A stretch of 42,302 nucleotides of DNA from Gemmatimonadales bacterium (GTDB lineage Bacteria; Gemmatimonadota; Gemmatimonadetes; Gemmatimonadales; GWC2-71-9): positions 1 through 42,302 of the forward strand of contig JANNSC010000135.1 of assembly GCA_031402135.1 (NCBI GenBank), written 5' to 3'. Below are positions 1,633-37,368 of the stretch, in pieces. The notes under the pieces are model-generated. The model was not told where the DNA came from, searched no databases, and saw only the letters and a list, made by a program, of their open reading frames with translations. The position numbers were made by a program, and so were the translations under genes. Within the stretch, counting starts at the first letter, position 1, and every line of letters begins with the position of its first letter.

Positions 1633-2364
1633 ATGCACAAGAGAAGCATCGCGTTCAGCCTCCTGGCGCTCATCGGCCTCGCTACCATGCCCCTCCACGC
1701 ACAGGAACCCAAGCTCGACTCCGCGACCATCGCGCGGGCCAACAAGCCGATCCTCCGCACCGGCGAATTTCTCGGCGTCCTCGGCGCGACAGCCATCGGA
1801 ATGGCGCTCGATCAGGCGGTTCGCAACAGAATTCGGGATCCGCATGACAAATTGGGGCGCACGCTATCCGATATCGGTAACGCTCAGGGAAGTGCCTTTG
1901 TCTACCCGACGCTGCTGGTGCTGTCGGTGGCAGGAAAGGTCATCGGGTCGAAGGGACTCTACGGTGTAAGCTCGCGTGCGCTCAAGTCGGCCCTCGTGGG
2001 TGGGGTCGGAGGCCTCGTGCTCAAGTCCGCGATCGGACGGCAACGTCCCTATTTATCCCCCAACAGCCCGTTCTCCTTTCATCCCTTCAGTTTCAAGGAC
2101 AACGCGTTCCCATCCGGGCACACGACCGTCGCCTTTGCCCTGGCGACGTCGTTCTCGCGGGAGATCAATGGCCAATGGGACGACGCAGCCTTCTTCACGC
2201 TGGCATCGCTCACCGCGTATGCCCGACTGCACGATGACAAACATTGGTTTTCAGACGTTGTGTTCGGCGCCGGAGTAGGGATCCTCTCGGCCCGGTTCGT
2301 CCACCGCCGGGAAGCCAAGCTTCTGCTGGGGCGAAACGTGATCGGAGCGAGCCTCGATTTTTGA
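1633..2364 (+). CDS. PAP2-family phosphatase with signal peptide
   Basis: KSAIGRQRP (KxxxxxxRP-like), FPSGH and ARLHDDKHWFSD motifs. Signal-like N-terminus from ATG 1633. Confidence 0.9.
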   Translation: MHKRSIAFSLLALIGLATMPLHAQEPKLDSATIARANKPILRTGEFLGVLGATAIGMALDQAVRNRIRDPHDKLGRTLSDIGNAQGSAFVYPTLLVLSVAGKVIGSKGLYGVSSRALKSALVGGVGGLVLKSAIGRQRPYLSPNSPFSFHPFSFKDNAFPSGHTTVAFALATSFSREINGQWDDAAFFTLASLTAYARLHDDKHWFSDVVFGAGVGILSARFVHRREAKLLLGRNVIGASLDF

Positions 2365-2438
2365 ACCACGAGTGCAACAAAGAGGATGTCATGGGCGATA
2401 ATTTCCAAAAATCACCCCGAAGTAATTCGCATTGCTAT

Positions 2439-2540
2439 GAATTCCCCACGAAAATCCCCGAAGTCCAATTGAAAATCTGTGAAAATTCGTGTTGCCTCGT
2501 GAAAATACCGGAAATCTCGTGAATTCCGCTCCGAAAACTC
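2439..2540. repeat. Degenerate 10-12 bp periodic GAAAAT-like array (phased A-tracts) between convergent genes
   Basis: Units start at 2439 gaattccccac, 2450 gaaaatcccc, 2460 gaagtccaatt, 2471 gaaaatctgt, 2481 gaaaattcgt, 2491 gttgcctcgt, 2501 gaaaataccg, 2511 gaaatctcgt, 2521 gaattccgctcc, 2533 gaaaactc. Confidence 0.7.
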
Positions 2541-2549
2541 CACCCGCGG

Positions 2550-3370
2550 TCATCCATCGGGTAGGTCGGGGGAATCTCGGGGGGTCTCGGAGTCCTTGGA
2601 CGGCTTGCCGAACATCCAATTGAGGTTGAGCGGCAGCCCCCGGATCTTGCGCCGCCGGTCCGTTACCTGGTAAAACCACGGATCGATCGTCTTGTTGCTC
2701 TCGAGCGTCGCATTGAGCGGGTCGATGACCCTGAGCGTCAGGCTCAACCGGTCGTTCATCTGGTTCCTCCGCGCCGCCAGGCTGACCGGGGTCTGGCTGC
2801 CGTTCCGGCCCTGTTCAACCGTCGTCGCCCCCAGGTACGACAGGATAGCCTGCATGTCGATGGCCTTCGAGACCCGGAACGAAGCCTTGGTCGGAGCGGT
2901 CCCGCCAAGGGTCCTGGCATTGAGGCCTGGTCCTGCGTTGGATGAGAGGCTCCCCTGCCGGAAGGCGCTCGCGCCTGTAAATCCAGAAAGCCGCCCGCCC
3001 GTCAAAGCGACCGTAGCATCCGCGCCGACCGCATCGGTTGTCGTGACCTTTGCAAAGGTGCGTGTGGTGACCCCGGCGCCACCGATGGTCCGGATGGTCC
3101 GGACCGCATCGCGGGTGTGACGGTAGAAGGGCGACTGCTGAACTGTCATCCTGCCGGGACTGCGCTGTAGCCCGAGCTCAAGGGCCCCGATGTACTCCGG
3201 CTTCAGGTGGGGGGTGCCGACCGGCAGGTTGAGCGGGTCCCGATAGTGCGGCGTCGGGTCGAGGACGTCGGTGTCGTCGGGGCGGCGAATCCGAGTCGAG
3301 TTGCTCAGCTTGATCTGGTGAGCGTCATCGATGTTTCAGGCCCCAATCCGCTCGGGAACACTCGGCTGGC
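2550..3370 (-). pseudogene. C-terminal remnant of a TonB-dependent receptor / outer-membrane beta-barrel
   Basis: Open minus frame from about 3336: NIDDAHQIKLSNSTRIRRPDD..LDPTPHYRDPLNLPVGTPHLKPEYIGALELG...NDRLSLTLRVIDP...LNLNWMFGK. This matches the SxRIxRP...GNPxLKPE barrel signature. An in-frame stop and frameshift lie upstream; there is no plug domain, signal peptide or start. Confidence 0.75.
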
Positions 3371-3446
3371 CTTCAATTACATTCTCATCCCGCCGGAATT
3401 AGTGCAGAGCTCCGTCCACCGGGCACGGATCAGCGCTACATGTCGT

Positions 3447-3466
3447 TGTCAATCAACAACTTGACA
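3447..3466. promoter_or_regulatory. Inverted repeat TGTCAA-N8-TTGACA upstream of wecB (perfect -35 hexamer, possible operator)
   Basis: tgtcaa at 3447-3452 and ttgaca at 3461-3466, 40 bp before the wecB ATG. Only a weak -10 match is present. Confidence 0.35.
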
Positions 3467-3506
3467 CGTGTTGCCTATCGGCCCCGTATTTGCGCTTGTG
3501 GACTCC

Positions 3507-4694
3507 ATGCCCTCTCCGAAAGACCGCAAACACCGCATTGCCGTCGTGCTGGGCACTCGTCCGGAAGCTATCAAAATGGCGCCGGTGATTGAGGAGCTAC
3601 GCCGGCGATCGGATCGCTTCGAAACGATCGTCATCACCACGTCGCAGCAGCGGGAAATGCTGGCCCAAGCCCTCCACGCCTTCCACCTCAAGCCCGATTA
3701 CGATCTCGGCCTGACCCATGAGAATCAGACTCTCGCCGGGTTTACTGCGCGCGCCCTGATCGCCCTGACCGAATCGTTTCGCGATGTGGTGAAGCCCGAC
3801 TTGTTGCTAGTTCAGGGCGACACCAGTACGGTGATTGCGGCAGCGCTGGCGGCGTTCTACAACGGGATCCCGATTGGACACATCGAGGCGGGCCTGCGCT
3901 CCGGCGATTCGCGCCGGCCATTCCCGGAGGAAGTAAACCGGCGGATGGCGAGCTGTGTCACCGATATTCACTTTGCTCCGACCACCCGGGCGCGAGACAA
4001 TCTGCTCGCCGAACGGGTTCCCGGAGAACACATTTACGTCACTGGCAATACCATCGTGGACGCACTCGCCTCGATTCGGCACGATGGGGTGTTTGATGAC
4101 AAGACCCTCAGCAATTTCGGCTGGGACACCAAGCGGGTGGTGCTCGCAACGGTCCACCGGCGCGAAAACCTCGGCCAGAATCTTCGCAACGTCTGCGCCG
4201 CTTTCCGCCGAATTGTGGAACTCCACCCCCACGTCGAGATCTTGATTCCGGTGCATTTGAATCCCCACGTCAGGGAAATCCTGCACGGGGAGCTCCGCGA
4301 CGTCCGGGGCATCAGCATGATCGAACCGCTCGAATACCCCGACTTGATCGAGGTGATGCGGCGCAGCACCCTGGTGCTGACCGACTCCGGGGGCATCCAG
4401 GAAGAGGCGCCCGCCATGCACAAGCCGGTCCTCATCCTGCGCACCGTCACCGAGCGTCCCGAGGTCATCGAATCTGGCTTCGGCCGGCTGGTTGGCACCG
4501 ACCGGGATCTGATCGTCGGAGAGGCCTCCCGCCTGCTCACCGATCCGATTGCCTACCGGACGATGACCGAGGGCAAGAACCCCTTCGGTGACGGCACCGC
4601 CGCGCGACAGATCGCCGACATCCTCACCGAACGGTTCCGCATCGGACGACTCTTTGCCGCCCAGATGGTGGACACCACAGTGCCGCAACACTAA
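3507..4694 (+). CDS. wecB: UDP-N-acetylglucosamine 2-epimerase (non-hydrolysing)
   Basis: GTRPEAIKMAP, VQGDT, GHIEAGLRS, PFPEEVNR, TGNTIVDAL, TVHRREN, TDSGGIQEEAP, TERPE and NPFGDG motifs. ATG 3507 chosen as start. Confidence 0.97.
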   Translation: MPSPKDRKHRIAVVLGTRPEAIKMAPVIEELRRRSDRFETIVITTSQQREMLAQALHAFHLKPDYDLGLTHENQTLAGFTARALIALTESFRDVVKPDLLLVQGDTSTVIAAALAAFYNGIPIGHIEAGLRSGDSRRPFPEEVNRRMASCVTDIHFAPTTRARDNLLAERVPGEHIYVTGNTIVDALASIRHDGVFDDKTLSNFGWDTKRVVLATVHRRENLGQNLRNVCAAFRRIVELHPHVEILIPVHLNPHVREILHGELRDVRGISMIEPLEYPDLIEVMRRSTLVLTDSGGIQEEAPAMHKPVLILRTVTERPEVIESGFGRLVGTDRDLIVGEASRLLTDPIAYRTMTEGKNPFGDGTAARQIADILTERFRIGRLFAAQMVDTTVPQH

Positions 4695-5506
4695 TGATTG
4701 CCATGGAAAGACCCCGGGCCGTTGCCGCCCTCTTGTTCGCCGGCCTGGCCGCAGCGTACCCTGGCACTTCGGCTTCGGCCCAGGCGCCGGGCCGCGTTGC
4801 TGGTTCCAGCTCCATCGAGGTGGGCGCATTCTACCAGCCGGTCACCGAGGGCTTCGGCGATTGGAAAGGCGCCTACGCCCGGGCGGTGGTCACCAGCCTG
4901 AAGAACGCGTGGTACCTGGAGGCCAAGACTCAGGAGGCTTTTCGCGATCGCGGCAGCTATGGGTCCGTCTCGAACGTGCATACCATTTCGGATCGAGTCT
5001 ATTCCCAGTTCGGAATCGGAGGCGGCACCGGTGGGTACGTCCTTCCCGACCTTCGCGTCGATGGCGCCCTCTCGCTCAAGCTAGGCCCCACCAAGGCGGT
5101 GGTGGTCACGGTAGGCGCCACCCTGGTTGCTGCGAAGCAGGATTTCAGCGACAAGGCGGCCTTCGGTACGCTTGCCTGGTATGTCGCGCCGGGCGCCGTC
5201 GCGGAAATTGGCGCGCGATTCAACTCCAGCAATCCCGGCGGGGTGGGTTCGGGGCGTGGTACCTTCGCGCTGACTTTGGGACGGGTCGGACGGCACCTCG
5301 TCGTCCTGCGCGGGGGGGCCGGGACCGAGGGGTACCAACTCACCGGCGCTGGTGCGGCCCTCCGTCGTTTCAAGAGCCAGGAGGCAGGGGTCTCGTGGCG
5401 GCAGTGGCTCGCGCGGCGGTGGGGCTTGGTTCTCGGAGCCGAGTGGTATCACAACCCGTTCTACACTCGAGCCGGCCTGATGATCGGTGGCTTCCGTGCC
5501 TGGTAG
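4694..5506 (+). CDS. YaiO-family outer-membrane beta-barrel protein
   Basis: Signal peptide (ASA-Q), alternating amphipathic strands, YHNPFYTR near the end and terminal aromatic residue (FRAW). TAATG overlap with wecB and GT2 context. Confidence 0.8.
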   Translation: MIAMERPRAVAALLFAGLAAAYPGTSASAQAPGRVAGSSSIEVGAFYQPVTEGFGDWKGAYARAVVTSLKNAWYLEAKTQEAFRDRGSYGSVSNVHTISDRVYSQFGIGGGTGGYVLPDLRVDGALSLKLGPTKAVVVTVGATLVAAKQDFSDKAAFGTLAWYVAPGAVAEIGARFNSSNPGGVGSGRGTFALTLGRVGRHLVVLRGGAGTEGYQLTGAGAALRRFKSQEAGVSWRQWLARRWGLVLGAEWYHNPFYTRAGLMIGGFRAW

Positions 5507-6317
5507 CGTTTCGGCGCCAGAATTGGAGCGGTCGCGACGGCTCGATGCACTCCGGGTCCGTGGAGTGCGCGGCGGTGTCATTGCCCCGCACCGCTCGATG
5601 GTGGGTCTGCGGTGGACGCCCTGGCGCTTCTTGTCGACCTTGCTGCTGACCGCCGGTGGACTCGCGCTGTTCGTGATTGCGCTGCCGTGGATCGGAGACC
5701 TCTGGCAGTTCGTTTTTGCCCGTACCCGGGACAGCCTCGGTGGGCTGGGCGCTCCCCTCGGTGATCAGCAGTTGGTCTTACCGGGCGGGTTGGAAATCAT
5801 CCTCCCGGTCCTGGCGGCGATGACCCCGCAGCCGGGAATATCTACGTTGTGGGCAGCGGGACTCGTGACGGCAGTAGTCTTTGCGTTGAGTTTTGCACTC
5901 CCGGACCGGTTTATCCCGGCCAAGTACTTCCTCCGCCTCCTCGTCATTCTGCAAGCCTCGTCGCTGTTCTTCTTTGCCTTCTCCGCCGAGCCATTCCCCT
6001 ACCGCCTGCAGGACCACGTCTTCCTGCTGCTCACCGCGGGACTCGTGGTGATGGGGTTGGTGCCGCTGGTGCTCGGACTGACGCTTCATGTTTTCGATAT
6101 CGCACTCTGGAAAAAACTCCTGTTGACTGTTGCGCTCATGGCCCACCTTGCGGTGTTCCTGCCGCTCAACGCAATGGTCCACATCTGGCTGGTGCTGCAT
6201 GGCACCGCGGTGCTCATGCCGGTGCTTTTTCTGGTCTTCGGGCTGCTCATGGACGTGATGATCCTGGTGGCGTTTTATGGGTGGGTGCTTTCAGAGAAGG
6301 GGAAGGGTCGCTCATGA
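5496..6317 (+). CDS. Hypothetical polytopic inner-membrane protein in the glycan operon
   Basis: About 6-7 hydrophobic segments. Overlaps the upstream stop and the downstream ATG. Start uncertain (GTG 5487/5496 or ATG 5598). Confidence 0.8.
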   Translation: MPGSVSAPELERSRRLDALRVRGVRGGVIAPHRSMVGLRWTPWRFLSTLLLTAGGLALFVIALPWIGDLWQFVFARTRDSLGGLGAPLGDQQLVLPGGLEIILPVLAAMTPQPGISTLWAAGLVTAVVFALSFALPDRFIPAKYFLRLLVILQASSLFFFAFSAEPFPYRLQDHVFLLLTAGLVVMGLVPLVLGLTLHVFDIALWKKLLLTVALMAHLAVFLPLNAMVHIWLVLHGTAVLMPVLFLVFGLLMDVMILVAFYGWVLSEKGKGRS

Positions 6318-7589: not shown

Positions 7590-8630
7590 ATGTTGCCCTT
7601 TCTCATCCTCCTGGCGCTGACCCTCGGCTGGTTCCTGTTGCCCATGATTCCGGCAATCCGGGAACTGGCCTGGCCCACCGATGTGCAGCCGCTCCAGGTG
7701 GTAGATCGGTCGGCGGGCGAGGTGGATTTCTTTGCCCGGAGCTTTCGTCAGTACTTCGAAAGGCAGGCGGCCGCTCTCACCGCGATGTCTGGCGCGGAGC
7801 GCCCCAGCGGCGCATTCCCGGACGGAACTCGCGTGCTTGAGCTGAATTCGGCGGCGGACGCCGGCGGTGGCACCGAAGACCGGCTGGTCGTCATCGAAAA
7901 CCCGCTGGCGCTTCCAGGGGACGAAACGTTTCTGGTTGAGCTGTATGCCCGGGCAGCCTTTACCGGCGGTCCCCGAGCGGTATACCGCGCCGTGTATGCC
8001 GAGCGGGATCTTAGCCTCGGAGATGGCTCCCGGGTACTCCGCTGGGCCCACGCGGCGGGGACACTTTCCGCTGGCGCCCACAGCGTCCTGCAAGGAAGGG
8101 TTTCCTCCGATCAGGCGGTGTCACTGGGCGGCGGAGTGCTCTTCGAGCGGATAGGCGCACCGGTGATCGCGGTGGGCACCGAAAATGAACCGCCGCCGGA
8201 ACCTCCGGCGATGGCCAAGGCGTTCGTGTTGCCGGAGGGGGCCTATGCCGTGGGGGACCACTTCCGGGTGGAAGGGGATCTCATCATCCCCAGCGGCGTG
8301 CGGGTCACCACCAGTCTCGTGGTCGCGGGCAGCGTCACGATTGGGCTCGGTACCGTCGTGGAAGGCAGCATCAAGGCCTACCGAGACGTCGAGCTCGCCG
8401 ATGAGGTCCGGGTCAGCGGGAGCATTGTAGCGCGACGGCGGGTGATGACCGGCGCCGCGGCATGGATCGGTGGGCCGGTAATTGCCGAAGAGCGGGTCCG
8501 CCTCGGCCGGGGAACGGTGATCGGTGGACCGAATCTTCCAGCCACCGTGAGCGCCCCGGAAGTGGAGCTCTCCCAAGGCGCCACCGTGTACGGTCAGATC
8601 AGCGCTCCGAAGGGCGGCAGGACCTTCTAG
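7590..8630 (+). CDS. Membrane-anchored protein with bactofilin-like beta-helix repeats
   Basis: Hydrophobic N-terminus, then repeated strands VEGDLII/VAGSVTI/VEGSIKA/VSGSIVA/IGGPVIA/VYGQISA. ATG lies 1 bp after the GT2 stop. Confidence 0.8.
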   Translation: MLPFLILLALTLGWFLLPMIPAIRELAWPTDVQPLQVVDRSAGEVDFFARSFRQYFERQAAALTAMSGAERPSGAFPDGTRVLELNSAADAGGGTEDRLVVIENPLALPGDETFLVELYARAAFTGGPRAVYRAVYAERDLSLGDGSRVLRWAHAAGTLSAGAHSVLQGRVSSDQAVSLGGGVLFERIGAPVIAVGTENEPPPEPPAMAKAFVLPEGAYAVGDHFRVEGDLIIPSGVRVTTSLVVAGSVTIGLGTVVEGSIKAYRDVELADEVRVSGSIVARRRVMTGAAAWIGGPVIAEERVRLGRGTVIGGPNLPATVSAPEVELSQGATVYGQISAPKGGRTF

Positions 8631-8694
8631 CCGCGACGGAAGAGCCCTCCCCTGTTGCATCGCGCTAGCGCCTCCCAGAGCGTAACTTCAACCC

Positions 8695-10461
8695 ATGAGC
8701 GATGCCGCAACCACCCGGATCATCCCCGGCCCGCCCCCCGCGTCCGATCGGGGGGACGAAAGCCTGGACGTCTGGGGCTTCCGCGATTCCGGTTTTGCCC
8801 TGCTTCCCAACGGCAGCGTAACCATGAGCGGCGATCGCTATGCGCTCTCTGGATCGGAGCTGCCTGACCTGTTGCCGTGGATCAAGCGGGTGATGAACAT
8901 CGAGTTTCCCCTGACCGACACCCACGACTCGGCGTACCCTCCACTGATCCCGCCCGCGGTCCCGACCGCCGGGTTTCTGGAGGTGCTGCAACGCCTGCTG
9001 CCGGCAACGGCCATTTCCAACGACCCGTTGGTGCGGCTGCGCCATGGCCACGGCCACACCCTGGAGGAGATGTACGCGATCAAGTACGGAAAATTGGAGC
9101 GGGTCCCCGATCTCGTGGTCTTTCCCAGCACCGAAGCCGAGGTCACGGCGCTGGTCGCCGCCGCCGCGGAGCACCACATCTGCCTGGTACCCTATGGCGG
9201 CGGAACCAATGTGACCGATGCGTTGCGATGCCCGGTCTCCGAGAAACGCAGCATCGTTTCCGTTGATCTCCGCCGCCTGAATCGCATCCTTTGGATCGAT
9301 CCGGTCAACCTGATGGCTTGCGTCCAGGCTGGGGCCGTCGGCCGCCACCTTCAGGCCCAGCTCGCCGAGCATGGATTCACCCTGGGTCACGAACCGGACA
9401 GCGTGGAATTTTCGACCCTCGGTGGGTGGATCGCCACCCATGCCAGCGGAATGAAGAAGAACCGCTACGGCAATATCGAGGACCTGGTGCTCGATGTGCA
9501 TGTCGTCACAGCGCGGGGTCCGCTGGCCCGCCCAACTGTCGCGCCTCGGGAATCGGTGGGCATCGACCCTCGGCGCTGGATGTTCGGTTCGGAGGGAAAC
9601 CTCGGCATCATCACTCACGCGGTCATCAAGATCTTTCCCCTGCCCGAGGTCGAACGTCACGACGCCGTGCTCTTTCTGACCTTCGAACACGGTGTCGCCT
9701 TTCTTCACGACCTGACCCGGGAGGCAACGCCGCCGGCCAGCGTCCGCCTGGTGGACAATCTTCAATTTCAGCTCAGTCAGACCCTCAAACCGAAGACCGC
9801 CGGGCTCAAAGCGGTGATACGCAAGGCAGAGAAGCTCTTCGTCACCCGGATCAAGGGCTTCGACCCCGAGAAGATGGTGGCGTGCACACTGTTGTACGAA
9901 GGCAGCGCGCTCCAGGTGGCCGCGGAGGAAGCGGCGGTCCGGCGTCTGGCCCGCCGGCATGGCGGGATGCGTGCCGGGGCGGACAACGGCAAGCGCGGCT
10001 ATCAGTTGACCTTCGGAATCGCATATATTCGCGACTTCGTGATGAAACACCACATTCTCGGCGAGTCGTTTGAGACGTCGGTGCCATGGAGCGAGACGTT
10101 GACCCTGTGTGCCAACGTCAAACGGCGCCTCGCCGACGAGTATGCCGCCCGGAAGCTCCCGGGAAAGCCGTTCGTAACCTGCCGAGTTACCCAAGTCTAT
10201 CAAACCGGAGTCTGTGTGTACTTCTATTTTGGCTTCCATCACAAGGGAGTACCCAATCCTTATGGGGTGTATGCCGAATTGGAACACGCCGCTCGGGACG
10301 AGATCCTGCGCTCCGGGGGCTCCCTCTCTCACCACCACGGCATCGGAAAGATTCGTCAAGCATTCCTGCCCCGGGTTTTTTCCAAGGCCACTCTTGAGTG
10401 GGCCGCCGAAGTGAAACGGGCGATCGATCCGGCCAATATCTTCGGCATCGCCAACCAATGA
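8695..10461 (+). CDS. Alkyl-dihydroxyacetonephosphate synthase (AGPS/ADAS)-like FAD oxidoreductase
   Basis: RLRHGHGHTLEEMY, VPYGGGTNV, GHEPDSVEFSTLGGW, ASGMKKNRYGNIED, GSEGNLGI, ASVRLVDN, GYQLTFGIAYIRD, GESFETSVPW, CRVTQVY and the catalytic SHHHGIGKIR motif, all characteristic of eukaryotic AGPS. Confidence 0.92.
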   Translation: MSDAATTRIIPGPPPASDRGDESLDVWGFRDSGFALLPNGSVTMSGDRYALSGSELPDLLPWIKRVMNIEFPLTDTHDSAYPPLIPPAVPTAGFLEVLQRLLPATAISNDPLVRLRHGHGHTLEEMYAIKYGKLERVPDLVVFPSTEAEVTALVAAAAEHHICLVPYGGGTNVTDALRCPVSEKRSIVSVDLRRLNRILWIDPVNLMACVQAGAVGRHLQAQLAEHGFTLGHEPDSVEFSTLGGWIATHASGMKKNRYGNIEDLVLDVHVVTARGPLARPTVAPRESVGIDPRRWMFGSEGNLGIITHAVIKIFPLPEVERHDAVLFLTFEHGVAFLHDLTREATPPASVRLVDNLQFQLSQTLKPKTAGLKAVIRKAEKLFVTRIKGFDPEKMVACTLLYEGSALQVAAEEAAVRRLARRHGGMRAGADNGKRGYQLTFGIAYIRDFVMKHHILGESFETSVPWSETLTLCANVKRRLADEYAARKLPGKPFVTCRVTQVYQTGVCVYFYFGFHHKGVPNPYGVYAELEHAARDEILRSGGSLSHHHGIGKIRQAFLPRVFSKATLEWAAEVKRAIDPANIFGIANQ

Positions 10462-12803
10462 CCGCCTTCGATCGTCACCCAGCCGGGGCGAACGCCCCGG
10501 GGCCGTCGCGAGTCTTCCTGCTCACCGGGGCGACCGGCTTCCTGGGCAAGGTGGTGCTGGAGGAACTCTTTCGCCGTCGGGAGGAGCTCGGCCTCGATCG
10601 GGTGATCGTGGTGATTCGGCCCAGGGGGAGTGACCACGCTGCCGATCGTTTTCACCGGGAGGTGGTCGGCTCTCCCTGCCTCGCCGGGCTCCCCGCCAAC
10701 TGGATTCGCAGCGTGACCGTGTTGGAGGGCAATCTCGAGGAACCGGGACTCCACCTCACCCCGGAAGGGGCTGACTTGCTGGGCAATGTCACCCATATCG
10801 TGAATACCGCGGCCTCAGTCAATTTCAATCTGCCGATTGCCGACGCTGCTCGTGCCAATATTTCTACCAGCCTCAACGTGCTCGAGTTGGCTCGGCACTG
10901 TCCGAAGTTGGTGCGCCTCGTCTCGGTGTCCACGGCCTACGTCACCCCGCATCCCGGTGACAACACGCCCATCGAGGAAGTTCTTCCGCCCCTTCCTGTC
11001 CCCGCCGGGGAGCTCTACGCTGCCATTCAGGAAGGGGGTTCGGTTGACGCGGACCTGCTGGCCCATTCCGGCCACCCCAATACCTACACCCTGACCAAGG
11101 CGATTGCCGAGCATCTCCTGGTGCAGCGGTGCGGCCGCGTCCCGCTCACCATCGTTCGGCCCAGCATCATCTCGGCCAGCCGCCAGACTCCATTCCCGGG
11201 ATGGATCGACAGCACCGCTGGATTCGGCGCCTTCGTGGTGCTCCTTGGGCTCGGTCACCTTCGCGCCGTAATCGGAGACTCCCGGGCCCGTCTCGACCTG
11301 GTGCCGGTGGACGATGTGGCACGGCGTATCGTGCTCGCCTGCCAGAACGACACTGCGCCCATCGAGATCCGGCACGCCGTGGCCGGGCTCGACGTGTCCT
11401 CGACCGTTGCACAGTGCTGGAAGGAGATCCAGCAATTTTTCAGGGTGCATCGGGTGGCCCGGCGTCCCGAACGCCGTTACCTCGGGCCCGGCGGAGCACC
11501 CTTCCAGATGGCCGACCTCCTCCATCACCGAATACCAATCGCCATTGCGGGGGCTCAGTCTCCCGAATCGAAGCGGCGCGCCCGGCACCTCGGGGCCCGC
11601 CTGACCCACCTGAACCGGGTGTTTCCCTACTTCACCACGCGTTCATTCGATTTTCGATCGTCGGTTCTGCTGCAGCCCGCCTTCGACGGACGCGGCTATG
11701 TGACGACGGTCTGCCGGGGGGTGTATCGCCACCTGCTCAAGCGAAACGAATCGGAATGGCCACTGGCGGGCCGCTCCCACTCCGGCCACGGCGGAGACCT
11801 CCGCTGGGCGCTCACTCAACCGCATGGCAACGCCTGGATTCGAATTGCGTCGTGGCTGGTCACCAAGGTGCTGCGACGCGCCGTCGATCAAGTCACCGTC
11901 GACATTCCTTCCTTTGAGGCGGCCCGGCAAGCGGCACCGCCGGGTACCGCCCTGGTGCTGGTACCCAATCATCGGAGTTACCTCGATTTCGTGCTGTGCT
12001 CCTATCTCGCGTTTGCCCGCCCTGATCTCGGCATTCCGATTCCACACATTGCCGCGACGATGGAGTTCGGCCGGATTCCGGTACTCGGGGCCATTCTCCG
12101 CTCGATGCACGCGTTCTACCTTCGGCGAGGGGTAGGCCGGGAGGATCCGGACTTGACCCGAAGAGTTCACGCACTGATGCAGGCCGGAAAGACCCTGGAA
12201 TTCTTCATCGAGGGCGAGCGCAGCCGCTCCCGTGAATTTCTTCCTCCCAAGCGCGGCCTGCTCCGGTGCCTTCAGGCCACCGGGCAAATCTGCATTCTGG
12301 TGCCGATTGCGCTCAGCTATGACCGCATTCCCGAAGAGCGGGCATTCGCTCGGGAACTGGCCGGTCACCCGAAGCCGAAGATGCGCCTGAGAGCGCTGCT
12401 CTCCTGGGCGGTGGACGCCTGGCGCGGGAGGATCGACCTCGGCCGGATTCACGTTGCCTGCGGCACGCCGGTGACCCTCGACCAGCGCTCCGATGTGCAC
12501 GCGGTGGGCCATGAGGTCATCAACCGACTCCGCGAGGCGACTGTGGCCACCACCTACCACCTCGAGGCGTATCTCTCCCACCATTCTCGGGACGGCCTGG
12601 ACCCCAGTTCGTTGCGTTCCGCCATCCAGGAAGGGGGCGGACGGGTCCTGGAGAGTGGCCTCAAGCTACCCGAGAATCTCGATCCGCTGATCGCCCGGAC
12701 CCTCCAGCACCAGTTTGCTCACCACCTCAACGGGAATACTCCGGGGGAGGCCGGTGTCGAGCCCGCAACGGAAGGCTTGCGCGAACCGGAGCCGGTCGGT
12801 TGA
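10458..12803 (+). CDS. Bifunctional fatty acyl-CoA reductase / DHAP (GPAT-family) acyltransferase fusion (FARAT-like)
   Basis: N-terminal FAR domain: TGATGFLGK, AASVNF, VSTAYV, PNTYTLTK, IVRPSII, PFPGWID, DLVPVD. C-terminal acyltransferase: PNHRSYLD (HX4D), AFYLRR, FFIEGERSR, VPIALSYDRIPE. ATGA overlap with AGPS. Confidence 0.9.
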   Translation: MTAFDRHPAGANAPGPSRVFLLTGATGFLGKVVLEELFRRREELGLDRVIVVIRPRGSDHAADRFHREVVGSPCLAGLPANWIRSVTVLEGNLEEPGLHLTPEGADLLGNVTHIVNTAASVNFNLPIADAARANISTSLNVLELARHCPKLVRLVSVSTAYVTPHPGDNTPIEEVLPPLPVPAGELYAAIQEGGSVDADLLAHSGHPNTYTLTKAIAEHLLVQRCGRVPLTIVRPSIISASRQTPFPGWIDSTAGFGAFVVLLGLGHLRAVIGDSRARLDLVPVDDVARRIVLACQNDTAPIEIRHAVAGLDVSSTVAQCWKEIQQFFRVHRVARRPERRYLGPGGAPFQMADLLHHRIPIAIAGAQSPESKRRARHLGARLTHLNRVFPYFTTRSFDFRSSVLLQPAFDGRGYVTTVCRGVYRHLLKRNESEWPLAGRSHSGHGGDLRWALTQPHGNAWIRIASWLVTKVLRRAVDQVTVDIPSFEAARQAAPPGTALVLVPNHRSYLDFVLCSYLAFARPDLGIPIPHIAATMEFGRIPVLGAILRSMHAFYLRRGVGREDPDLTRRVHALMQAGKTLEFFIEGERSRSREFLPPKRGLLRCLQATGQICILVPIALSYDRIPEERAFARELAGHPKPKMRLRALLSWAVDAWRGRIDLGRIHVACGTPVTLDQRSDVHAVGHEVINRLREATVATTYHLEAYLSHHSRDGLDPSSLRSAIQEGGGRVLESGLKLPENLDPLIARTLQHQFAHHLNGNTPGEAGVEPATEGLREPEPVG

Positions 12804-13837
12804 CCGCTGGCCGTTGGCTGATCACCGGCGCGAGCGGGTTTCTGGGCCGGCATTTGTTGACCCACATGGAGAACGAGGCCGCTGCACCGGAGCTTTTTGC
12901 CCTGGTGCGAAATCAGGCGGAGTGGGAGACGATGGAGTGGACCCGTTCCCTCCACCGAGTGCAGACCGTGTCTGGCGCCATCACGGAACCGGAGGTGTGG
13001 AAGGATGACCCGCGCCTGTCCGACCTTTCCGGGATCTTCCACCTTGCGGCCCTGGTCCGCCACACCCGCCAACACAGCGACGAGGTTTACTACACCAATG
13101 TGGTCGGCACCCGCAACATGGTGCGGCTCGCCGCCCGGCATCGTTGCCGGGTTGTTTTTGTTTCCACCTCTGGTACTGTCGGGTGCTTCCGCCGGCCCCA
13201 AGACAGCGCCGATGAGGATGCGACCTACTGTGAACGGGAAGTCTCCGATTGGCCCTACTATCACTCGAAAATCCAGGCGGAGCGGGAAGCCCGGCGGATC
13301 GCCGGGGAGTTAGGGGTGGAGTTGGTCATCGTCAGGCCGCCGGTTCTGCTCGGGCCTGGCGATCATCGCTTTCGCTCAACCGGACACCTGATTCGGTTCC
13401 TGCGCGGGAAATTGCCCTTCCTGGTGCAGGGGGGGATGCACTACGCTGATGTCCGCGACGTCGCCCGGGCGCTGGTCCGCGCGATGATGCTCAAGAACCC
13501 TCGACCGGTCTATCATCTGCCGGGGACGAGCTGCAGCGTCGAAGATTTTTTTGTCGACGCCGGCGTGGCCGCTGGTCGGGCCCCCACCAGTCGGGTGATT
13601 TCGTCTCGGTTGGCGTGGTGGCTGGCCCGGCTTACCGCGCCGCTCCACCTTCTGCCCGACCCGGTGGTGGTCGAAATGGCCTCGCGGTACTGGGGCCTCG
13701 CCTCCCGCTACGCCGAGCCGGAGCTGGGCTATCGGAGCCGCCCCGGCCAGGAAACGCTGCGGGATACGGTCGAATGGTTACGGATGAACCACCCCCTGCT
13801 CCTCGCTCCTGGTCGGCTCAACGCGTCAAGCCCCTGA
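12800..13837 (+). CDS. Extended SDR / NAD-dependent epimerase-dehydratase family (candidate acyl/alkyl-DHAP reductase)
   Basis: ITGASGFLG, FHLAA, NVVGT, FVSTS, YYHSK (YxxxK), VRPPVLLGPGD and DVRDVA motifs. TTGA overlap with the fusion gene. Confidence 0.88.
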   Translation: MTAGRWLITGASGFLGRHLLTHMENEAAAPELFALVRNQAEWETMEWTRSLHRVQTVSGAITEPEVWKDDPRLSDLSGIFHLAALVRHTRQHSDEVYYTNVVGTRNMVRLAARHRCRVVFVSTSGTVGCFRRPQDSADEDATYCEREVSDWPYYHSKIQAEREARRIAGELGVELVIVRPPVLLGPGDHRFRSTGHLIRFLRGKLPFLVQGGMHYADVRDVARALVRAMMLKNPRPVYHLPGTSCSVEDFFVDAGVAAGRAPTSRVISSRLAWWLARLTAPLHLLPDPVVVEMASRYWGLASRYAEPELGYRSRPGQETLRDTVEWLRMNHPLLLAPGRLNASSP

Positions 13838-29416: not shown

Positions 29417-30127
29417 ATGTACCAGCCGACGCTGATGGGTGGGGTGCTGCTGGTCTACCTCCTTGCGCTGCTGCCCTGGCTGGCCTATCGCAGCGCGCTC
29501 CGAATGCGGGCCGCCCGCACCGGGGCGCCGCTCCCCGGCAGCGACCCGCTCCCGCCGCTCACCGGGATCCTCAGCGGCACCCTCACCTTGCTCATCGCGC
29601 TCTTTCTGATGGCGTGGTTCGCCGGCCGCGGCTACCAATTCGACCTTTTCTGGTACGAGTCGATCGGCCTCAAAGAGATCGCTGCCGGCGTCGCCGCGCT
29701 GGCGGGATATTTCGTGCTCCGGGTGGTGAGCCGGGCCATCCGCACTCCCGAAGAGCGCAGGACGATGGCGGTCCGCCAGTTGATGCCCCGCACCCGGAAC
29801 GAGTGGGTCCTCTACATTCTGGTTGGGCTCGCGGCGGGGATCGCGGAGGAGTCGGCCTATCGCGGCGTCGGGATGTACGCCCTGACGCTGGTCACCGGGA
29901 GTCCGTGGGTCGGGGCAGTGGGGATGTCGGTGGCGTTCGCGCTGGCGCACATCACCCAGGAGTGGAAAAGTGCCGGCATCGTTTTCTTCATGGCGCTCCT
30001 GACCCATGCGCTGGTGGTGGTGACGAACACGCTGGTGGTGGCGATGGCGGTGCACGTGGTGTACGACTGGCTGGCGGCGCTGCTGTTGGTGCGGGAGATG
30101 AGAGCCGAAGCACCCGAGGCCGGTTAA
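29417..30127 (+). CDS. CPBP (CAAX/Abi) intramembrane metalloprotease
   Basis: AEESAYRG, FALAH and AMAVHVVYD motifs with multiple TMs. Confidence 0.9.
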   Translation: MYQPTLMGGVLLVYLLALLPWLAYRSALRMRAARTGAPLPGSDPLPPLTGILSGTLTLLIALFLMAWFAGRGYQFDLFWYESIGLKEIAAGVAALAGYFVLRVVSRAIRTPEERRTMAVRQLMPRTRNEWVLYILVGLAAGIAEESAYRGVGMYALTLVTGSPWVGAVGMSVAFALAHITQEWKSAGIVFFMALLTHALVVVTNTLVVAMAVHVVYDWLAALLLVREMRAEAPEAG

Positions 30128-31035
30128 CGCCCCAGGCCGGCCGGTGCCCGCGCCTTTCCGACCGCGCCGGCAAGCCCCAGCAGCGCGAGGAGGTACGGCA
30201 TCATCAGAAAGAATTGATACGGCACCGAATACCCCATCGCCTGCAAGGCGAATTGCAGGGCGTTGGCTCCGCCAAAAAACAGGGCCGCGAGGAGCACACC
30301 GAAGGGGTGCCATCGGCCCAGAACCACAATCGCAATCGCAATGAAACCCCTGCCGGCAGTCATCTTCTCGGCAAAAGTGCCAACCTGGGCCAGCACCAGC
30401 GTCGCACCGGCCAAGCCGGCCAGCGCACCACCGGTCAGGGTGGCGGCCACCTGGACCGCGCGCACCGGCACCCCCGCCGCCCTCGCCGACTCCACCGATT
30501 CCCCAGTCGCCCGGAGCGCCAACCCCGGCTGGGTCCGAAACAGAAACCACCAGACCAGTGGAACCAGCAGCCACGCCAGGTAGCCGAGCAGTGGCTGCAC
30601 GAAGAGCGCCGGGCCGAGGATGGGTATCGCCGAAAGCCCGGGAATCGACACTGCGGGCAAGGTGGGCAGCGAAAGCCCCGGACCGGCCGCTCCGAAGGCG
30701 GTGCGGGAAATCGCGCCGGTCAGCCCGACCGAAGCAAGGGTGACGGCGGTGCCGGTGATGATCTGATCCGCCTGGGCTCCGATTGCCACCGCAGCAAAGA
30801 GCGCCGCAACCATCACGCCCGCGACCATCGCCATCACCACTCCATACCACGGTCCGCCCGCTGCCGCGCCCAGCGCCGACGCCAGCGCGCCGGCCAGCAT
30901 TGCCCCCTCGACTCCCAAGTTGATGACGCCGGCCTTTTCGCTTATCAGCTCGCCGGTGGCCGCCAGCAGCAACGGGGTGGAAATCCGCACCGCCGCGGCG
31001 AGAAAGCCAACCAGCACCGCACTCTCCTCGATCAT
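30124..31035 (-). CDS. Nucleoside/sugar (BMP-type) ABC transporter permease
   Basis: EKAGVINLGVEG, GLALRATGE, GRGFIAIA and PYLL motifs. ATG 31035. Confidence 0.93.
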   Translation of the reverse strand: MIEESAVLVGFLAAAVRISTPLLLAATGELISEKAGVINLGVEGAMLAGALASALGAAAGGPWYGVVMAMVAGVMVAALFAAVAIGAQADQIITGTAVTLASVGLTGAISRTAFGAAGPGLSLPTLPAVSIPGLSAIPILGPALFVQPLLGYLAWLLVPLVWWFLFRTQPGLALRATGESVESARAAGVPVRAVQVAATLTGGALAGLAGATLVLAQVGTFAEKMTAGRGFIAIAIVVLGRWHPFGVLLAALFFGGANALQFALQAMGYSVPYQFFLMMPYLLALLGLAGAVGKARAPAGLGR

Positions 31036-32072
31036 GGTCGGCTCCCCGCGGCGGCCCTTCGGCGCAGTACTACCTCCGCCAGCACAATCACCAGGATGAT
31101 TGTCGCTTCCGCCACCTGGACCGCGACCGCCGGCACCCCAGCCTCGCGCTGCATGCCCTGCGCACCCGCCTCGAGACCGCCGAACAGGAGTCCGGTGAAC
31201 AGAATGCCCAGCGGATTGAGTCGCGCCAGCAACGCCACCGCGATCGCGGTGAAGCCGTAACCCGGAGAAAGATTCTGGAAGAGCGCGTAGGTGACTCCGC
31301 TGATCTCGACGCCGCCACCCAGTCCCGCCAGCGCCCCCGACCAGAGCAAGGCAATGCCGATCACCCGCTTGACCGGAATGCCTCCGCTCAGTTCGGCCGC
31401 CAGGGGGCCCAGCCCGACCGCTCGCAGCCGAAAGCCCCACGCTGTGCGGGTGAAGAGCGCCCACAGGAGCAACGCCAGCAGAATTGCCAGCACCAGGCCA
31501 AGATGGAGGCGGGTATTCCCGAAAAGAGGAAGACGGGCAGCGGCGGCGATCGGATCGCTCTGCGGGTAGATCCGCTTCGACTCCTGCAACGGCCCCGTCA
31601 CTGCGTAACTCACCGCCGCCTCGGCGACGAAGTTGAGCAACAGCGTCGAGATCACCTCGAGGACCCCAAAGCGGAGCTTGAGCAGAACCGGGAGCGCCAT
31701 CCAGACCACTCCCGCCACCGCAGCGGCCAGCCACACCGCACCAATGGCGACCGGCCCCGGCCACCCCGCCGCATGTACCCCCACCCAGGTCGCCGCGATG
31801 GCGCCGGCGTAGAACTGCCCCTCGGCACCTATATTGAGCGCGCCGGCACGGAACGCCAGCGCCACGCCGAGTCCAAGAATGATCAGGGGGACCGCCCGGA
31901 CCAAAGTGGCGGAGCTGAGCGCGTACCACGACCCGAACGAGCCCCGCCACAGCGCGCCCAGGGCAAGAAGTGGATCATAACCCGCCGCCGTCAGCCCGAG
32001 GGCCAGGACCAGGAGCCCCACCACCAGTGCCGTCAGCGCCACCGCCCCCGAACGGGCCAAGGCCCCTCTCAT
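31032..32072 (-). CDS. Nucleoside/sugar (BMP-type) ABC transporter permease
   Basis: LNIGAEGQ, EVISTLLLN, GFRLRAVG and GYGFTAIAVALLA. Confidence 0.93.
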   Translation of the reverse strand: MRGALARSGAVALTALVVGLLVLALGLTAAGYDPLLALGALWRGSFGSWYALSSATLVRAVPLIILGLGVALAFRAGALNIGAEGQFYAGAIAATWVGVHAAGWPGPVAIGAVWLAAAVAGVVWMALPVLLKLRFGVLEVISTLLLNFVAEAAVSYAVTGPLQESKRIYPQSDPIAAAARLPLFGNTRLHLGLVLAILLALLLWALFTRTAWGFRLRAVGLGPLAAELSGGIPVKRVIGIALLWSGALAGLGGGVEISGVTYALFQNLSPGYGFTAIAVALLARLNPLGILFTGLLFGGLEAGAQGMQREAGVPAVAVQVAEATIILVIVLAEVVLRRRAAAGSRP

Positions 32073-35672: not shown

Positions 35673-36472
35673 CAGTGTTCCTCCTTCACCAGCGTTTCGG
35701 GATCGATCGATACCCCATTGAGCCGAATTTCGAAATGGAGGTGCGGCGCCGACGACCGGCCGGAGTTGCCGCTCCGGGCAATCACTTCTCCCGCGGAAAC
35801 TGCCGCGCCCTGCACCGCCAGAATTCGAGAGAGGTGGCCATACATCGACTGATATCCGTCGGGATGCTCCAGGAGAACGAAACGGCCATAGGCCTCATGC
35901 TCTCCGGTCTGGAGGATGATGCCCCCGCCAGGAGCACGCACGAGACTCCCCATCGGCACCGCGATATCGATGCCAGGGTGTTCTTCCTGGGTGCTGTCGG
36001 CATTTGCCTGCCCCCGGGTGACATAGCCCCGCTGGTCGAGAGGCCAATGCCGGGGGAGCGAGGGTCCGGTCTCGTAGACTGCCGCGGCACCGGGAGGAGT
36101 CGCCAGGATTGGAGGCGCCACCGGAAAGGCGCTGCCCAACACCACCCGATCGGGCACGATGTCGGCACCAACCATCCGGCGGAGCCGCTCGTAGCTCGCT
36201 TCGACCGAATCGAGTGCCGAGGCGAGGTCTCTGACCCGAAGGTTGTCGGTGCGAAGTCGCTCGACCTCACGCTCCAGTGGGGGCACCCGCGCAGCTTGCC
36301 GCGCAATCGGTCCGTAGAATGCAATGCCCAGAATCAGGAGTCCGGTCGCAACCACCACGAGCACCACCGCGGCGCGCACCGCCCACACCGGAGCCCGGTA
36401 GGTCCTCGACTGCAGCGCCCCGTCCCGCTGCACAATAATGGAAACGCTGCGGCGCCCCGCGCCGGTGCTCAT
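35672..36472 (-). CDS. Membrane-anchored M23 family metallopeptidase with coiled coil
   Basis: TM helix, coiled coil, HPGID (HxxxD), YGHLS and PHLHFE (HxH). Confidence 0.93.
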   Translation of the reverse strand: MSTGAGRRSVSIIVQRDGALQSRTYRAPVWAVRAAVVLVVVATGLLILGIAFYGPIARQAARVPPLEREVERLRTDNLRVRDLASALDSVEASYERLRRMVGADIVPDRVVLGSAFPVAPPILATPPGAAAVYETGPSLPRHWPLDQRGYVTRGQANADSTQEEHPGIDIAVPMGSLVRAPGGGIILQTGEHEAYGRFVLLEHPDGYQSMYGHLSRILAVQGAAVSAGEVIARSGNSGRSSAPHLHFEIRLNGVSIDPETLVKEEH

Positions 36473-37368
36473 CCTCCGAACGGCTCGCCCAGAATCAACT
36501 CCAGCACGCGGGCAAGGTCGTCATTGGAGTAGTAATGAATGGTCACTGCGCCGCGGCCTCGGCGTCTGGCCGTAACCCGCACATCCGTTTGCAACCGTTT
36601 CCGAAGGGCGTCCTCGACCAGCCGGACGTCGGCGCTGGGGTTTCGCGCTTCGGCCTTGGGGCGGCGAATAACCTTGCGAGCCCCCACCGGTCCGTTCACC
36701 TGCTCGCCCCGCACCCTCGCCTCGAGATCTCGTACCGACCAGTCGGAGGCCGCGCACTCCCGGGCGAGCCTGGTGATTTCCTTGGGGTCCTCCAGGGCCA
36801 AAAGCGCTCTGCCGTGGCCCTCAGAGAGCTTTCGGTGCTGCAGGAGCCCTTGCACCTCCCCGGGTAGCCGAAGCAATCGGATGGTGTTGCTCACCGCGGA
36901 AGGACTCTTGCCGACCAAGCGGGCGATCTCTGTCTGCGGAATCGAAAACTCCTCCATCAGCCGTTGATAGCCGAGCCCCGAGTCGATCGCCGAGAGATCG
37001 TCCCGCTGGAGATTCTCGATGAGGGCCAAGGTGAGGAGCGAGCGGTCGTCCACGTCCTTCACAATCGCGGGAATGTGTTGCCAGCCCAGCCGCTGGACCG
37101 CCCGCCAACGGCGCTCGCCGGCGATCAGTTCGTACCGGCCGTTCGGCCGGGAGCGCACCACCACCGGCTGGAGCAGGCCGGACGCCTGAATCGAGTCGGC
37201 AAGTTCCTTCAGTTGGGTCTCGTCAAATTCCCGGCGCGGCTGATACGGGTTGGGCGAGATCGCGGTGACCGGCAGCTCCTTGAGCCCACCGCTCGCTTGC
37301 GCTGCTTCCTTCGAAATAGGGCCGAGCAGTGACTCGAGCCCTCGGCCCAGCCGCCTCGTTTCAGTCAT
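36469..37368 (-). CDS. parB: Chromosome partitioning protein ParB/Spo0J
   Basis: [11 protein letters not shown] ParA-activating peptide, NPYQPR, GERRWRA CTPase motif, ENLQRDDL and HTH. Confidence 0.97.

Follow-up and report, generated by a model that had tools for sequence, protein, structure and literature searches.

Whether bacteria of the order Gemmatimonadales can build the ether bond at sn-1 of glycerolipids along the route used by animals and protists is the question raised by three adjoining genes in a window of 42,302 nucleotides, the whole stretch of DNA analysed here. The initial annotation read these genes as AGPS with a catalytic HHH motif, a FAR-acyltransferase fusion (FARAT) and an NAD(P)-dependent SDR, together covering all four steps to a 1-O-alkyl-glycerol-3-phosphate. 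Their coordinates are given in Table 1.

Table 1. Features of the AGPS-FARAT-SDR locus (positions in the window).
Feature	Position	Strand	Length or basis
AGPS (alkyl-dihydroxyacetonephosphate synthase, FAD-dependent)	8695..10461	+	588 aa
FARAT, FAR/acyltransferase fusion	10458..12803	+	781 aa from ATG
FAR domain of FARAT, N-terminal fatty acyl-CoA reductase	~10521-11327	+	Pfam NAD_binding_4
PlsB/GNPAT-type acyltransferase domain of FARAT, C-terminal	~11931-12314	+	Pfam Acyltransferase
Extended SDR, NAD(P)-dependent carbonyl reductase, proposed 1-alkyl-DHAP reductase	12800..13837	+	345 aa
ATGA start/stop overlap, AGPS/FARAT	10458..10461	+	sequence reading
TTGA start/stop overlap, FARAT/SDR	12800..12803	+	sequence reading; FARAT stop TGA at 12801-12803

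ORF calls and a reading of the sequence confirm the three coupled genes of the initial annotation, which lie on one strand with 4-nt overlaps at both junctions. In many related loci the SDR match opens 0-21 nt past the FARAT match. A chance origin of the three ORFs is excluded because they are long and their family matches very strong. The likely start of FARAT is ATG 10458 rather than GTG 10398, the earliest start of this ORF, because homologues open a few residues ahead of the GxxGxxG motif. A promoter and terminator scan returned no promoter-like site and three terminator-like sites, all intragenic and not above shuffled sequence, and is uninformative on the ends of the operon. Two metatranscriptome runs from one study contain contigs of a relative (~96% identical) that span positions 8000-13817; this cover is the relative's and not evidence of transcription. 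In the same two runs the bins past 13859 are without cover, from which nothing is concluded because the relative's contigs enter unlike sequence at 13817. Upstream of AGPS lie bactofilin-like, GT2 and YaiO genes, which recur in 2-5 related loci. There they do not adjoin AGPS, and they are rejected as parts of the system for this reason.

The product of the first gene possesses the Pfam domains FAD_binding_4 and FAD-oxidase_C. In phmmer searches of the PDB its residues 25-587 match the guinea-pig AGPS structure (2.9e-165, 554 bits, 563 residues covered), and Dictyostelium AGPS follows with 305 bits (9.1e-90). The alignment begins at residue 94 of the guinea-pig chain, the mammalian N-terminal extension being absent from the bacterial protein. 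HHH at residues 546-548 aligns with the HHH of the guinea-pig enzyme, Tyr509 (in YFYF) stands at the sole position where entries 4bby and 4bca differ, and the arginine of SVRL (349-352) aligns to guinea-pig chain residue 419. We take Tyr578 to be the catalytic tyrosine and Arg419 an active-site arginine of the guinea-pig enzyme. Gene 1 is firmly assigned to AGPS on these alignments, which indicate that the catalytic HHH, the tyrosine and the equivalent of Arg419 are retained. A special closeness to animal AGPS is rejected, since against the same guinea-pig chain the AGPS proteins of two Myxococcota MAGs reach 595 and 558 bits and that of a Terriglobia MAG 537 bits; closeness to eukaryotic AGPS and FARAT is here gauged by bit scores to solved structures.

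FARAT combines an N-terminal NAD_binding_4 domain (1.4e-53, residues 42-310) with a C-terminal Acyltransferase domain (2.1e-21, residues 512-639, both in GTG-start numbering). The former carries the GxxGxxG and YxxxK motifs as GATGFLG at 24 and YTLTK at 210, the latter the HxxxxD motif as HRSYLD at 505 (ATG-start numbering). PDB matches comprise the fatty acyl-CoA reductase 7eoz and the glycerol-3-phosphate acyltransferases 9vuq and 8e4y. The nearest Atlas cluster is a bacterial FAR+AT fusion with 570 members (score 0.99), the second-nearest a eukaryotic FAR+AT+GPAT_C cluster (score 0.95), so that domains, structures and clusters agree on the fusion recognised in the initial annotation. The best curated profile match of the acyltransferase domain is PlsB, a G3P acyltransferase, with 120 bits against a cut-off of 610; the substrate of this domain would nevertheless be DHAP rather than G3P. 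According to the portion of PMC13012113 available, protist FARATs (Tetrahymena TtFARAT, Dictyostelium, kinetoplastids) likewise join a FAR at the N-terminus to a DHAP-acyltransferase-type domain at the C-terminus in a single polypeptide, and work cited there has the Tetrahymena protein provide both AGPS substrates. Protist proteins reach ~1,140 aa, against 781 aa here, and neither a GPAT_C nor a Sterile domain was detected in the bacterial FARAT with Pfam. In a sample of 401 genomes of the phylum, close AGPS and FARAT are found in one identical set of 11 genomes.

The third gene encodes an NAD(P)-dependent SDR, as first annotated, with matches to Epimerase (6.6e-27), NAD_binding_4 (2.8e-21, 76 bits) and 3Beta_HSD (2.7e-13) and with GASGFLG at 10 and YYHSK at 153 as its GxxGxxG and YxxxK motifs. 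The fold neighbours of its AlphaFold model (pLDDT 93.3) at ranks 1-10 include gox2253, cinnamoyl-CoA reductases, kavalactone reductase and cinnamyl-alcohol dehydrogenase 2, with a single UDP-glucose 4-epimerase at rank 9; dihydroflavonol reductase is 14th, and the other sugar epimerases mostly rank lower. The nearest solved folds are mostly carbonyl reductases, thioester/aldehyde reductases included beside ketoreductases.

The enzyme families, catalytic motifs, gene coupling, host taxonomy and co-occurrence together point, with good probability, to a chromosomal three-gene operon that forms the sn-1 glycerolipid ether bond in the way of animals and protists, though without an organelle. Within FARAT, the FAR domain would reduce a fatty acyl thioester with NAD(P)H to a fatty alcohol, and the acyltransferase domain would turn dihydroxyacetone phosphate into 1-acyl-DHAP. 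AGPS, using its FAD non-oxidatively, would then swap the acyl group for the alcohol, giving 1-O-alkyl-DHAP, and the SDR would reduce the C2 ketone to 1-O-alkyl-sn-glycerol-3-phosphate. Housekeeping acyltransferases and head-group enzymes would complete plasmanyl (alkyl-acyl) phospholipids. Each substrate in this scheme is a putative one, including DHAP for the acyltransferase, and the role of the SDR is the most conjectural element. Of the four steps claimed in the initial annotation, the first three have their enzyme families in the operon; the fourth is the presumed task of the SDR, a gene missing from 14 of the 34 operons that could be assessed within this AGPS clade. Compared with the animal peroxisomal pathway (FAR1, GNPAT, AGPS, DHRS7B), the first three activities are alike in chemistry and enzyme families, whereas the bacterial FAR and acyltransferase are fused and an extended SDR is put forward as reductase.

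An alternative with a smaller but appreciable chance of being right accepts AGPS and FARAT as proposed and takes gene 3 for a fatty aldehyde or acyl-thioester reductase aiding FAR, or for a later lipid or head-group reductase, the ketone being reduced by an unlinked enzyme. The NAD_binding_4 match and the cinnamoyl-CoA reductases among the nearest folds are consistent with it, as is a thioester-reductase profile that gives 86 bits, under its cut-off. The SDR is not obligatory, because besides its absence from those 14 operons no homologue occurs elsewhere in any of the seven genomes with SDR-less operons that were searched. The animal enzyme DHRS7B is presumably a classical and not an extended SDR. 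It is the known animal alkylglycerone phosphate reductase, a role given to DHRS7B/DHRS7 in the accessible part of PMC13200781. Against the alternative, the SDR is confined in the phylum sample to genomes with AGPS and FARAT (8 of 11, versus 0 of the 390 others). Its fold neighbours also include dihydroflavonol reductase and kavalactone reductase, which act as ketoreductases.

Five sister loci possess a DegT-family aminotransferase and an acyltransferase in the slot of the SDR, and on two metagenome contigs an aminotransferase is likewise located at the SDR position. That this ketone-modifying enzyme replaces the SDR in the five sister loci is consistent with a ketone as substrate of the third-slot step, since an aminotransferase requires a ketone and not an alcohol-bound aldehyde. 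We infer that gene 3 encodes the alkyl-DHAP reductase, the fourth step of the pathway.

A similar cluster, placed by the initial annotation in Myxococcus xanthus, does exist there with the same gene order: MXAN_1676-1675-1674 are described as AGPS, a FAR-GNPAT fusion and an NAD-epimerase-family protein in the text available of PMC9131029. MXAN_1676 has a part in forming alkyl ether lipids (PMC9131029; PMC13012113, in the sections available), although its loss lowers ether lipids only slightly, ElbD being the main route (PMC9131029). Both operons share gene order on one strand, a likeness that follows the published description, sequences having been compared only with Myxococcota-titled MAGs. 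The two systems differ in phylum and in setting, as M. xanthus has both CarF/PEDS1 and ElbD. The Gemmatimonadales genome (99.17% complete) lacks a match to the CarF/PEDS1 (TMEM189) desaturase, PF10520, a search that the initial annotation had suggested, and so do two other Gemmatimonadota carriers; as a positive control, PF10520 is matched in two of three Myxococcota-titled genomes. Neither an ElbD-like FARAT paralogue nor an HGD-D domain of the PlsA/Ger type was found in the Gemmatimonadales genome, which contains five further PF01553 acyltransferases available for sn-2 acylation. The lack of CarF/PEDS1 leads to the prediction that the products are saturated alkyl (plasmanyl) ethers and not plasmalogens. 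The operon would be the sole route, ending at alkyl and not vinyl ethers. The ElbD pathway (myxobacteria, Acidobacteria SD4) and the reductive PlsA/PlsR-Ger routes likewise lead to glycerol ether lipids in bacteria, but their proteins are unrelated to those of the AGPS-route operon or differently built.

With about the same modest probability as the other reading of gene 3, the product could be an ether lipid of a minor or specialised kind, for example, as in M. xanthus, a signal lipid, a stress lipid or a neutral alkyl-diacylglycerol, instead of bulk plasmanyl phospholipid. The homologous M. xanthus operon adds little to total ether lipid, and the ether lipids of that species include the neutral lipid TG-1 (PMC9131029, in the part available). 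The patchy occurrence of the operon in the phylum (11 of the 401 sampled genomes) implies that it is dispensable for the group. Any ether lipid made would depend on this operon, however, because no second route was found in the genome. Sequence is uninformative on the amount or class of ether lipid.

Far less probable is that the contig was mis-binned or recently transferred from Myxococcota and that its assignment to Gemmatimonadota is an artefact. MAG bins can include foreign contigs, and the clade of the AGPS tree in which this AGPS is placed, mostly Gemmatimonadota, includes a single Propionibacteriaceae-titled locus and four Gammaproteobacteria-titled ones. The same 42-kb contig, however, carries mnmG, parA and parB, and its MnmG is 78% identical to that of two Gemmatimonadales MAGs, 59% to that of a Gemmatimonadaceae MAG and 47% to that of a Terriglobia MAG. 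The AGPS shares 61-67% identity with that of Myxococcota-titled MAGs. Three of the four other genomes of the genus have the operon, and GC content is even over the whole window. MnmG, the congeneric carriers and GC lead us to reject mis-binning. Judged by these sequences the contig is Gemmatimonadales and the operon native to the lineage, not myxobacterial, as the initial annotation had supposed. The weakest reading, that gene 1 is an ordinary FAD-linked glycolate/D-lactate oxidase in a cluster unconnected with ether bonds, can draw on its generic Pfam domains, common to such oxidases, and on a GlcD profile match of 161 bits (cut-off 568), but is ruled out by the PDB bit scores, where the best non-AGPS match, a glycolate oxidase, reaches 92 bits against 554 and 305 over the full length of solved AGPS, by the AGPS-specific N-terminal region aligned from residue 25, by the retained HHH and tyrosine, and by the strict co-occurrence of FARAT (11/11 genomes).

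Relatives of this AGPS occur in at least 570 stretches of species-representative genomes. Among the best 80 related loci, FARAT follows AGPS in 51 and the full AGPS-FARAT-SDR order is present in 35, with titles from several phyla; it is found in 5 of the 13 loci with Myxococcota titles among the related loci examined. GTDB has been surveyed for these ether-lipid enzymes in a PNAS paper of 2026 (PMC13012113, available in part), whose genome and phylum lists (Datasets S1-S5, SI Fig. S5) may already name Gemmatimonadota. Literature searches yielded no paper in which Gemmatimonadota are connected with AGPS or ether lipids, PMC11316326 and PMC9426513 containing reference-list or unrelated mentions. 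The novelty that the initial annotation saw in a non-myxobacterial host was overstated, given the 35 loci from several phyla and the existing survey. What the Gemmatimonadales operon adds is a new carrier for a system already known.

A wider reading joins several propositions and is, as a whole, offered tentatively. The operon may be the only ether-bond route of the lineage and supply a bulk plasmanyl membrane lipid, in which case the monoalkyl glycerol ethers of sediments and soils would have an oxygen-independent and so far unrecognised source in Gemmatimonadota. Gene 3 would be the bacterial alkyl-DHAP reductase, an extended SDR unrelated to DHRS7B. The third slot would be a branch point, from which one branch reduces the ketone of alkyl-DHAP and the other transaminates and N-acylates it to give an undescribed 1-O-alkyl-2-acylamino lipid.

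The finding leaves the picture of how ether bonds form unchanged, and the distribution of the system outside myxobacteria is already in print as phylum counts. The exchange of genes in the third slot, together with the pattern of co-occurrence, provides a testable hypothesis for the missing bacterial step that processes alkyl-DHAP. Being compact, with three genes, the operon lends itself to tests of the bacterial pathway, in which the assignment of steps still comes only from sequence even in M. xanthus. With it, a phylum seen in sediment metagenomes joins those bacteria for which synthesis of alkyl glycerol ethers via AGPS is predicted, and this bears on the reading of ether-lipid biomarkers.

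Three long ORFs on the plus strand span 8695-13837 of the window (table), and ORF calls together with sequence reading confirm the coordinates and the start/stop overlaps of the three genes in the initial annotation. Homologues of gene 2 begin a few residues ahead of the GxxGxxG motif, which, with the ATGA overlap, argues for the ATG start at 10458; the 781-aa protein read from there is the likely gene 2 product.

Coordinates of the predicted ether-lipid operon and of other features (window positions unless a locus is named)
Feature	Position	Strand	Remarks
Gene 1, AGPS (alkyl-DHAP synthase)	8695-10461	+	588 aa translation
ATGA overlap	ATG 10458 over gene 1 stop	+	read from sequence
Gene 2, FARAT (fatty-acyl reductase/acyltransferase fusion)	10458-12803	+	781 aa from ATG 10458; frame open from GTG 10398
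TTGA overlap	TTG 12800 over gene 2 stop TGA 12801-12803	+	read from sequence
Gene 3, extended SDR	12800-13837	+	TTG start; ORF, Pfam, motifs
Branched-chain amino-acid permease gene	30124-31950	-	
parB	36469-37368	-	
parA	37365-38201	-	
mnmG	38479-40353	-	
Variant operon, FARAT to acyltransferase	L020:1867-5995		FARAT 1867-4011, DegT 4008-5204, acyltransferase 5201-5995
Second AGPS type	L086:2334-5706		genome G371; another family of phylum
Second AGPS type	L085:1994-8156		genome G286; another family of phylum
Broken SDR match	L039:10168-11155		Gemmatimonadaceae MAG

By its sequence gene 1 is an AGPS, in agreement with the AGPS-like flavoenzyme first proposed. It matches the Pfam families FAD_binding_4 and FAD-oxidase_C and, among all PDB sequences, guinea-pig AGPS (2.9e-165, 554 bits, query 25-587) and Dictyostelium AGPS (9.1e-90, 305 bits). 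The top non-AGPS match is a glycolate oxidase at 92 bits, so the FAD protein sides with AGPS and not with the oxidases. Conserved residues include the HHH motif (546-548), the Tyr at the only position that distinguishes PDB entry 4bby from 4bca, and the Arg that lines up with guinea-pig chain residue 419. A special closeness to the animal enzyme was considered and rejected, as AGPS of Myxococcota and Terriglobia MAGs score 595, 558 and 537 bits against 554. Gene 2 is, judged by the same kind of evidence, the expected FAR-acyltransferase fusion, with NAD_binding_4 (1.4e-53) followed by Acyltransferase (2.1e-21), the motifs GATGFLG, YTLTK and HRSYLD, and PDB matches to a fatty acyl-CoA reductase and to glycerol-3-phosphate acyltransferases. 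Its nearest two ESM-Atlas clusters, taken as a lead only, comprise bacterial FAR+AT fusions (570 members) and eukaryotic FAR+AT+GPAT_C proteins (260 members). Gene 3 matches Epimerase, NAD_binding_4 and 3Beta_HSD and carries GASGFLG and YYHSK. The nearest folds to its confidently predicted structure (pLDDT 93.3) are gox2253, cinnamoyl-CoA reductases and kavalactone reductase, with UDP-glucose 4-epimerase at rank 9, dihydroflavonol reductases from rank 14 and most other sugar epimerases lower; these neighbours indicate a carbonyl reductase by fold.

The operon lies on contig C135, which also bears parA, parB and mnmG; the assembly totals 3.2 Mb in 504 contigs and is rated 99.17% complete. The window MnmG shares 78% identity with its counterparts in two MAGs titled Gemmatimonadales, against 59% for a Gemmatimonadaceae MAG and 47% for a Terriglobia MAG. 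The closest AGPS relatives (73-77% identity) are, among the matches listed, nearly all titled Gemmatimonadales or Gemmatimonadota, one same-genus genome matching at contig coordinates identical to those of the MAG behind the related locus L007. GC content is uniform along the window. The suspected Gemmatimonadota, non-myxobacterial origin of the contig is supported by MnmG, the titles of the AGPS relatives and the even GC. The three genes parB, parA and mnmG are grouped on the minus strand, an arrangement typical near a chromosomal origin. An AT skew of +0.30 at 30001-32000 coincides with the permease gene and probably reflects the T-rich codons common in membrane-protein genes.

Species-representative genomes contain at least 570 stretches encoding a gene 1 relative. 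An AGPS tree of the best 80 of these and the window, a sample biased to the query, was built by quick search with SH-aLRT as its only support. It places the window inside a starred set of 26 rows (21 titled Gemmatimonadota), enclosed by a starred 44-row side with 34 Gemmatimonadota, 4 Pseudomonadota, 1 Actinomycetota and 5 rows without phylum label, the window included; the opposite side mixes Myxococcota, Acidobacteriota, Pseudomonadota, Binatota and others. Among the same best 80 of at least 570, AGPS is followed by FARAT in 51 loci and by FARAT and SDR in 35. The Gemmatimonadota-type clade (43 loci) has a full FARAT in 37; in the other six it is cut by the contig end (four), lacking despite room (one) or without room (one). 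In the phylum sample of 401 genomes, own genome included, a close AGPS (at least 59% identity) occurs in 11, FARAT in exactly those 11, and SDR in 8 of the 11 and 0 of the 390 others; the genomes are kin and not independent, so these counts are no statistical test. The linkage of AGPS, FARAT and SDR is clear. With 11 of 401 genomes the operon is rare and patchy within the phylum, yet 3 of 4 other members of the window's genus carry it.

Several neighbourhoods depart from this arrangement within the best 80 of at least 570 relatives. The AGPS of L021, L023, L025 and L026 (Gammaproteobacteria/Woeseiaceae titles) form a starred clade nested in the Gemmatimonadota-type clade, which suggests that AGPS-FARAT, without SDR, may have been transferred between Gammaproteobacteria and Gemmatimonadota; a poly(A) polymerase (pcnB-type) gene comes after FARAT in L021 and L026. 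L017, titled Propionibacteriaceae, is likewise nested there and may be mis-binned. FARAT does not adjoin AGPS in 10 of 10 Acidobacteriota loci (L056, L057, L060, L065, L069, L070, L073, L075, L079 and L080), 9 of which have 6 kb of room, and in Binatota L059 and L068 AGPS is followed by an acyltransferase-domain match only (FARAT query residues ~450-775); AGPS partners thus differ between phyla. The SDR match of L039 is broken across two frames, either by a frameshift or by an assembly error.

In sequencing runs labelled freshwater sediment, nearly every sampled word of the window stretch is present; these runs may be the source sample and give no independent support. A relative ~96% identical occurs in contigs from three further runs, one of sediment DNA from a different study and two metatranscriptomes from yet another; the RNA-run contigs count as cover of its sequence, not as proof of transcription. 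One of its contigs has 121 differing letters over 10555-13817. The relative spans all three genes and continues into unlike sequence from 13817, 20 nt before the SDR stop. The same loose end is found in RNA run X5 and DNA run X7, from different studies, so the 3' edge of the operon is a synteny break between close strains.

In the proposed pathway the FAR domain of FARAT would supply the fatty alcohol and its acyltransferase domain acyl-DHAP, AGPS would swap acyl for alkyl, the SDR would reduce the ketone to 1-O-alkyl-G3P, and general phospholipid enzymes would complete the lipid. The enzyme families are shown, and we infer all substrates from characterised eukaryotic enzymes, such as the Tetrahymena FARAT cited in PMC13012113; DHRS7B is the animal reductase according to PMC13200781. 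Of the four steps ascribed to the operon at the outset, the enzyme families stand by homology, and the SDR remains a putative alkyl-DHAP reductase. Among clade loci with at least 1,500 nt past FARAT (best 80 of at least 570 AGPS relatives), it is present in 20 of 34 and missing in 14, and no SDR homologue was found in 7 of 7 searched genomes whose operons lack it (two positive controls matched); ketone reduction by the SDR is the weakest step. In favour of this role, the SDR occurs in the phylum sample only where AGPS and FARAT do, and an aminotransferase takes its place in sister operons. In the own genome, 99.17% complete, PF10520 (CarF/PEDS1, the plasmalogen desaturase) has no match; the same search matches 2 of 3 Myxococcota-titled genomes and 0 of 2 Gemmatimonadota carriers. 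No FARAT paralogue, hence no ElbD-like protein, was found there with the FARAT query, nor an HGD-D domain as in PlsA/Ger; five additional PF01553 acyltransferases are present. Given these three absences, the operon appears on this evidence to be the only recognisable ether-bond route of the genome, and its products should end at saturated alkyl ethers. As a reading of the genes, the functional interpretation has good support from homology.

The Myxococcus cluster named at the outset exists: according to PMC9131029, MXAN_1676-1675-1674 of M. xanthus is the same three-gene operon, and MXAN_1676 contributes a minor share of alkyl ether lipids beside ElbD, the other myxobacterial route (PMC9131029; Sci Adv 2022). 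PMC13012113 (PNAS 2026), where the fusion is named FARAT, reports individual ether-lipid genes in several phyla and all four enzymes together in 73 genomes, of which 61 are Myxococcota; it states that the phylogenetic signal of AGPS is too low, and its main text does not name Gemmatimonadota. The window operon adds a lineage to the carriers of an operon type that is already known and does not represent a new system; novelty beyond myxobacteria was overstated, the operon having been described and its order recurring in 35 of the 80 best loci.

In a variant operon (L003, L010, L012, L014 and L020), AGPS and FARAT are followed by a DegT/DnrJ/EryC1-family aminotransferase and a PlsC-like acyltransferase, which occupy the position of the SDR; in L020 the genes are joined by 4-nt overlaps. 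The only two close aminotransferase relatives found in metagenome contigs (L091, L092) share the four-gene context, so that 7 of 7 close copies found stand in it. No SDR homologue was found in two searched genomes carrying this variant. An aminotransferase in the SDR slot is consistent with the substrate here being a ketone and suggests that the variant operon makes an amide/ether lipid; possibly the alkyl-DHAP ketone is transaminated and then N-acylated to an undescribed lipid of this kind, of which no description was found in the literature searched, by titles listed. A second AGPS type (30-33% identity to gene 1) occurs in three genomes sampled from a different family of the phylum. In the loci L086 and L085 a separate FAR, ending in a Sterile domain, precedes it. 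In L086 it keeps HHH and scores 402 bits with Dictyostelium AGPS vs 318 with guinea-pig AGPS, a preference reversed in the window AGPS; in L085 an HAD hydrolase and a DegT-family aminotransferase gene converge on it. Of the features described, the variable third position and the existence of two AGPS types merit follow-up. The two bacterial types mirror the two eukaryotic ones and may be relevant to where eukaryotic AGPS came from.
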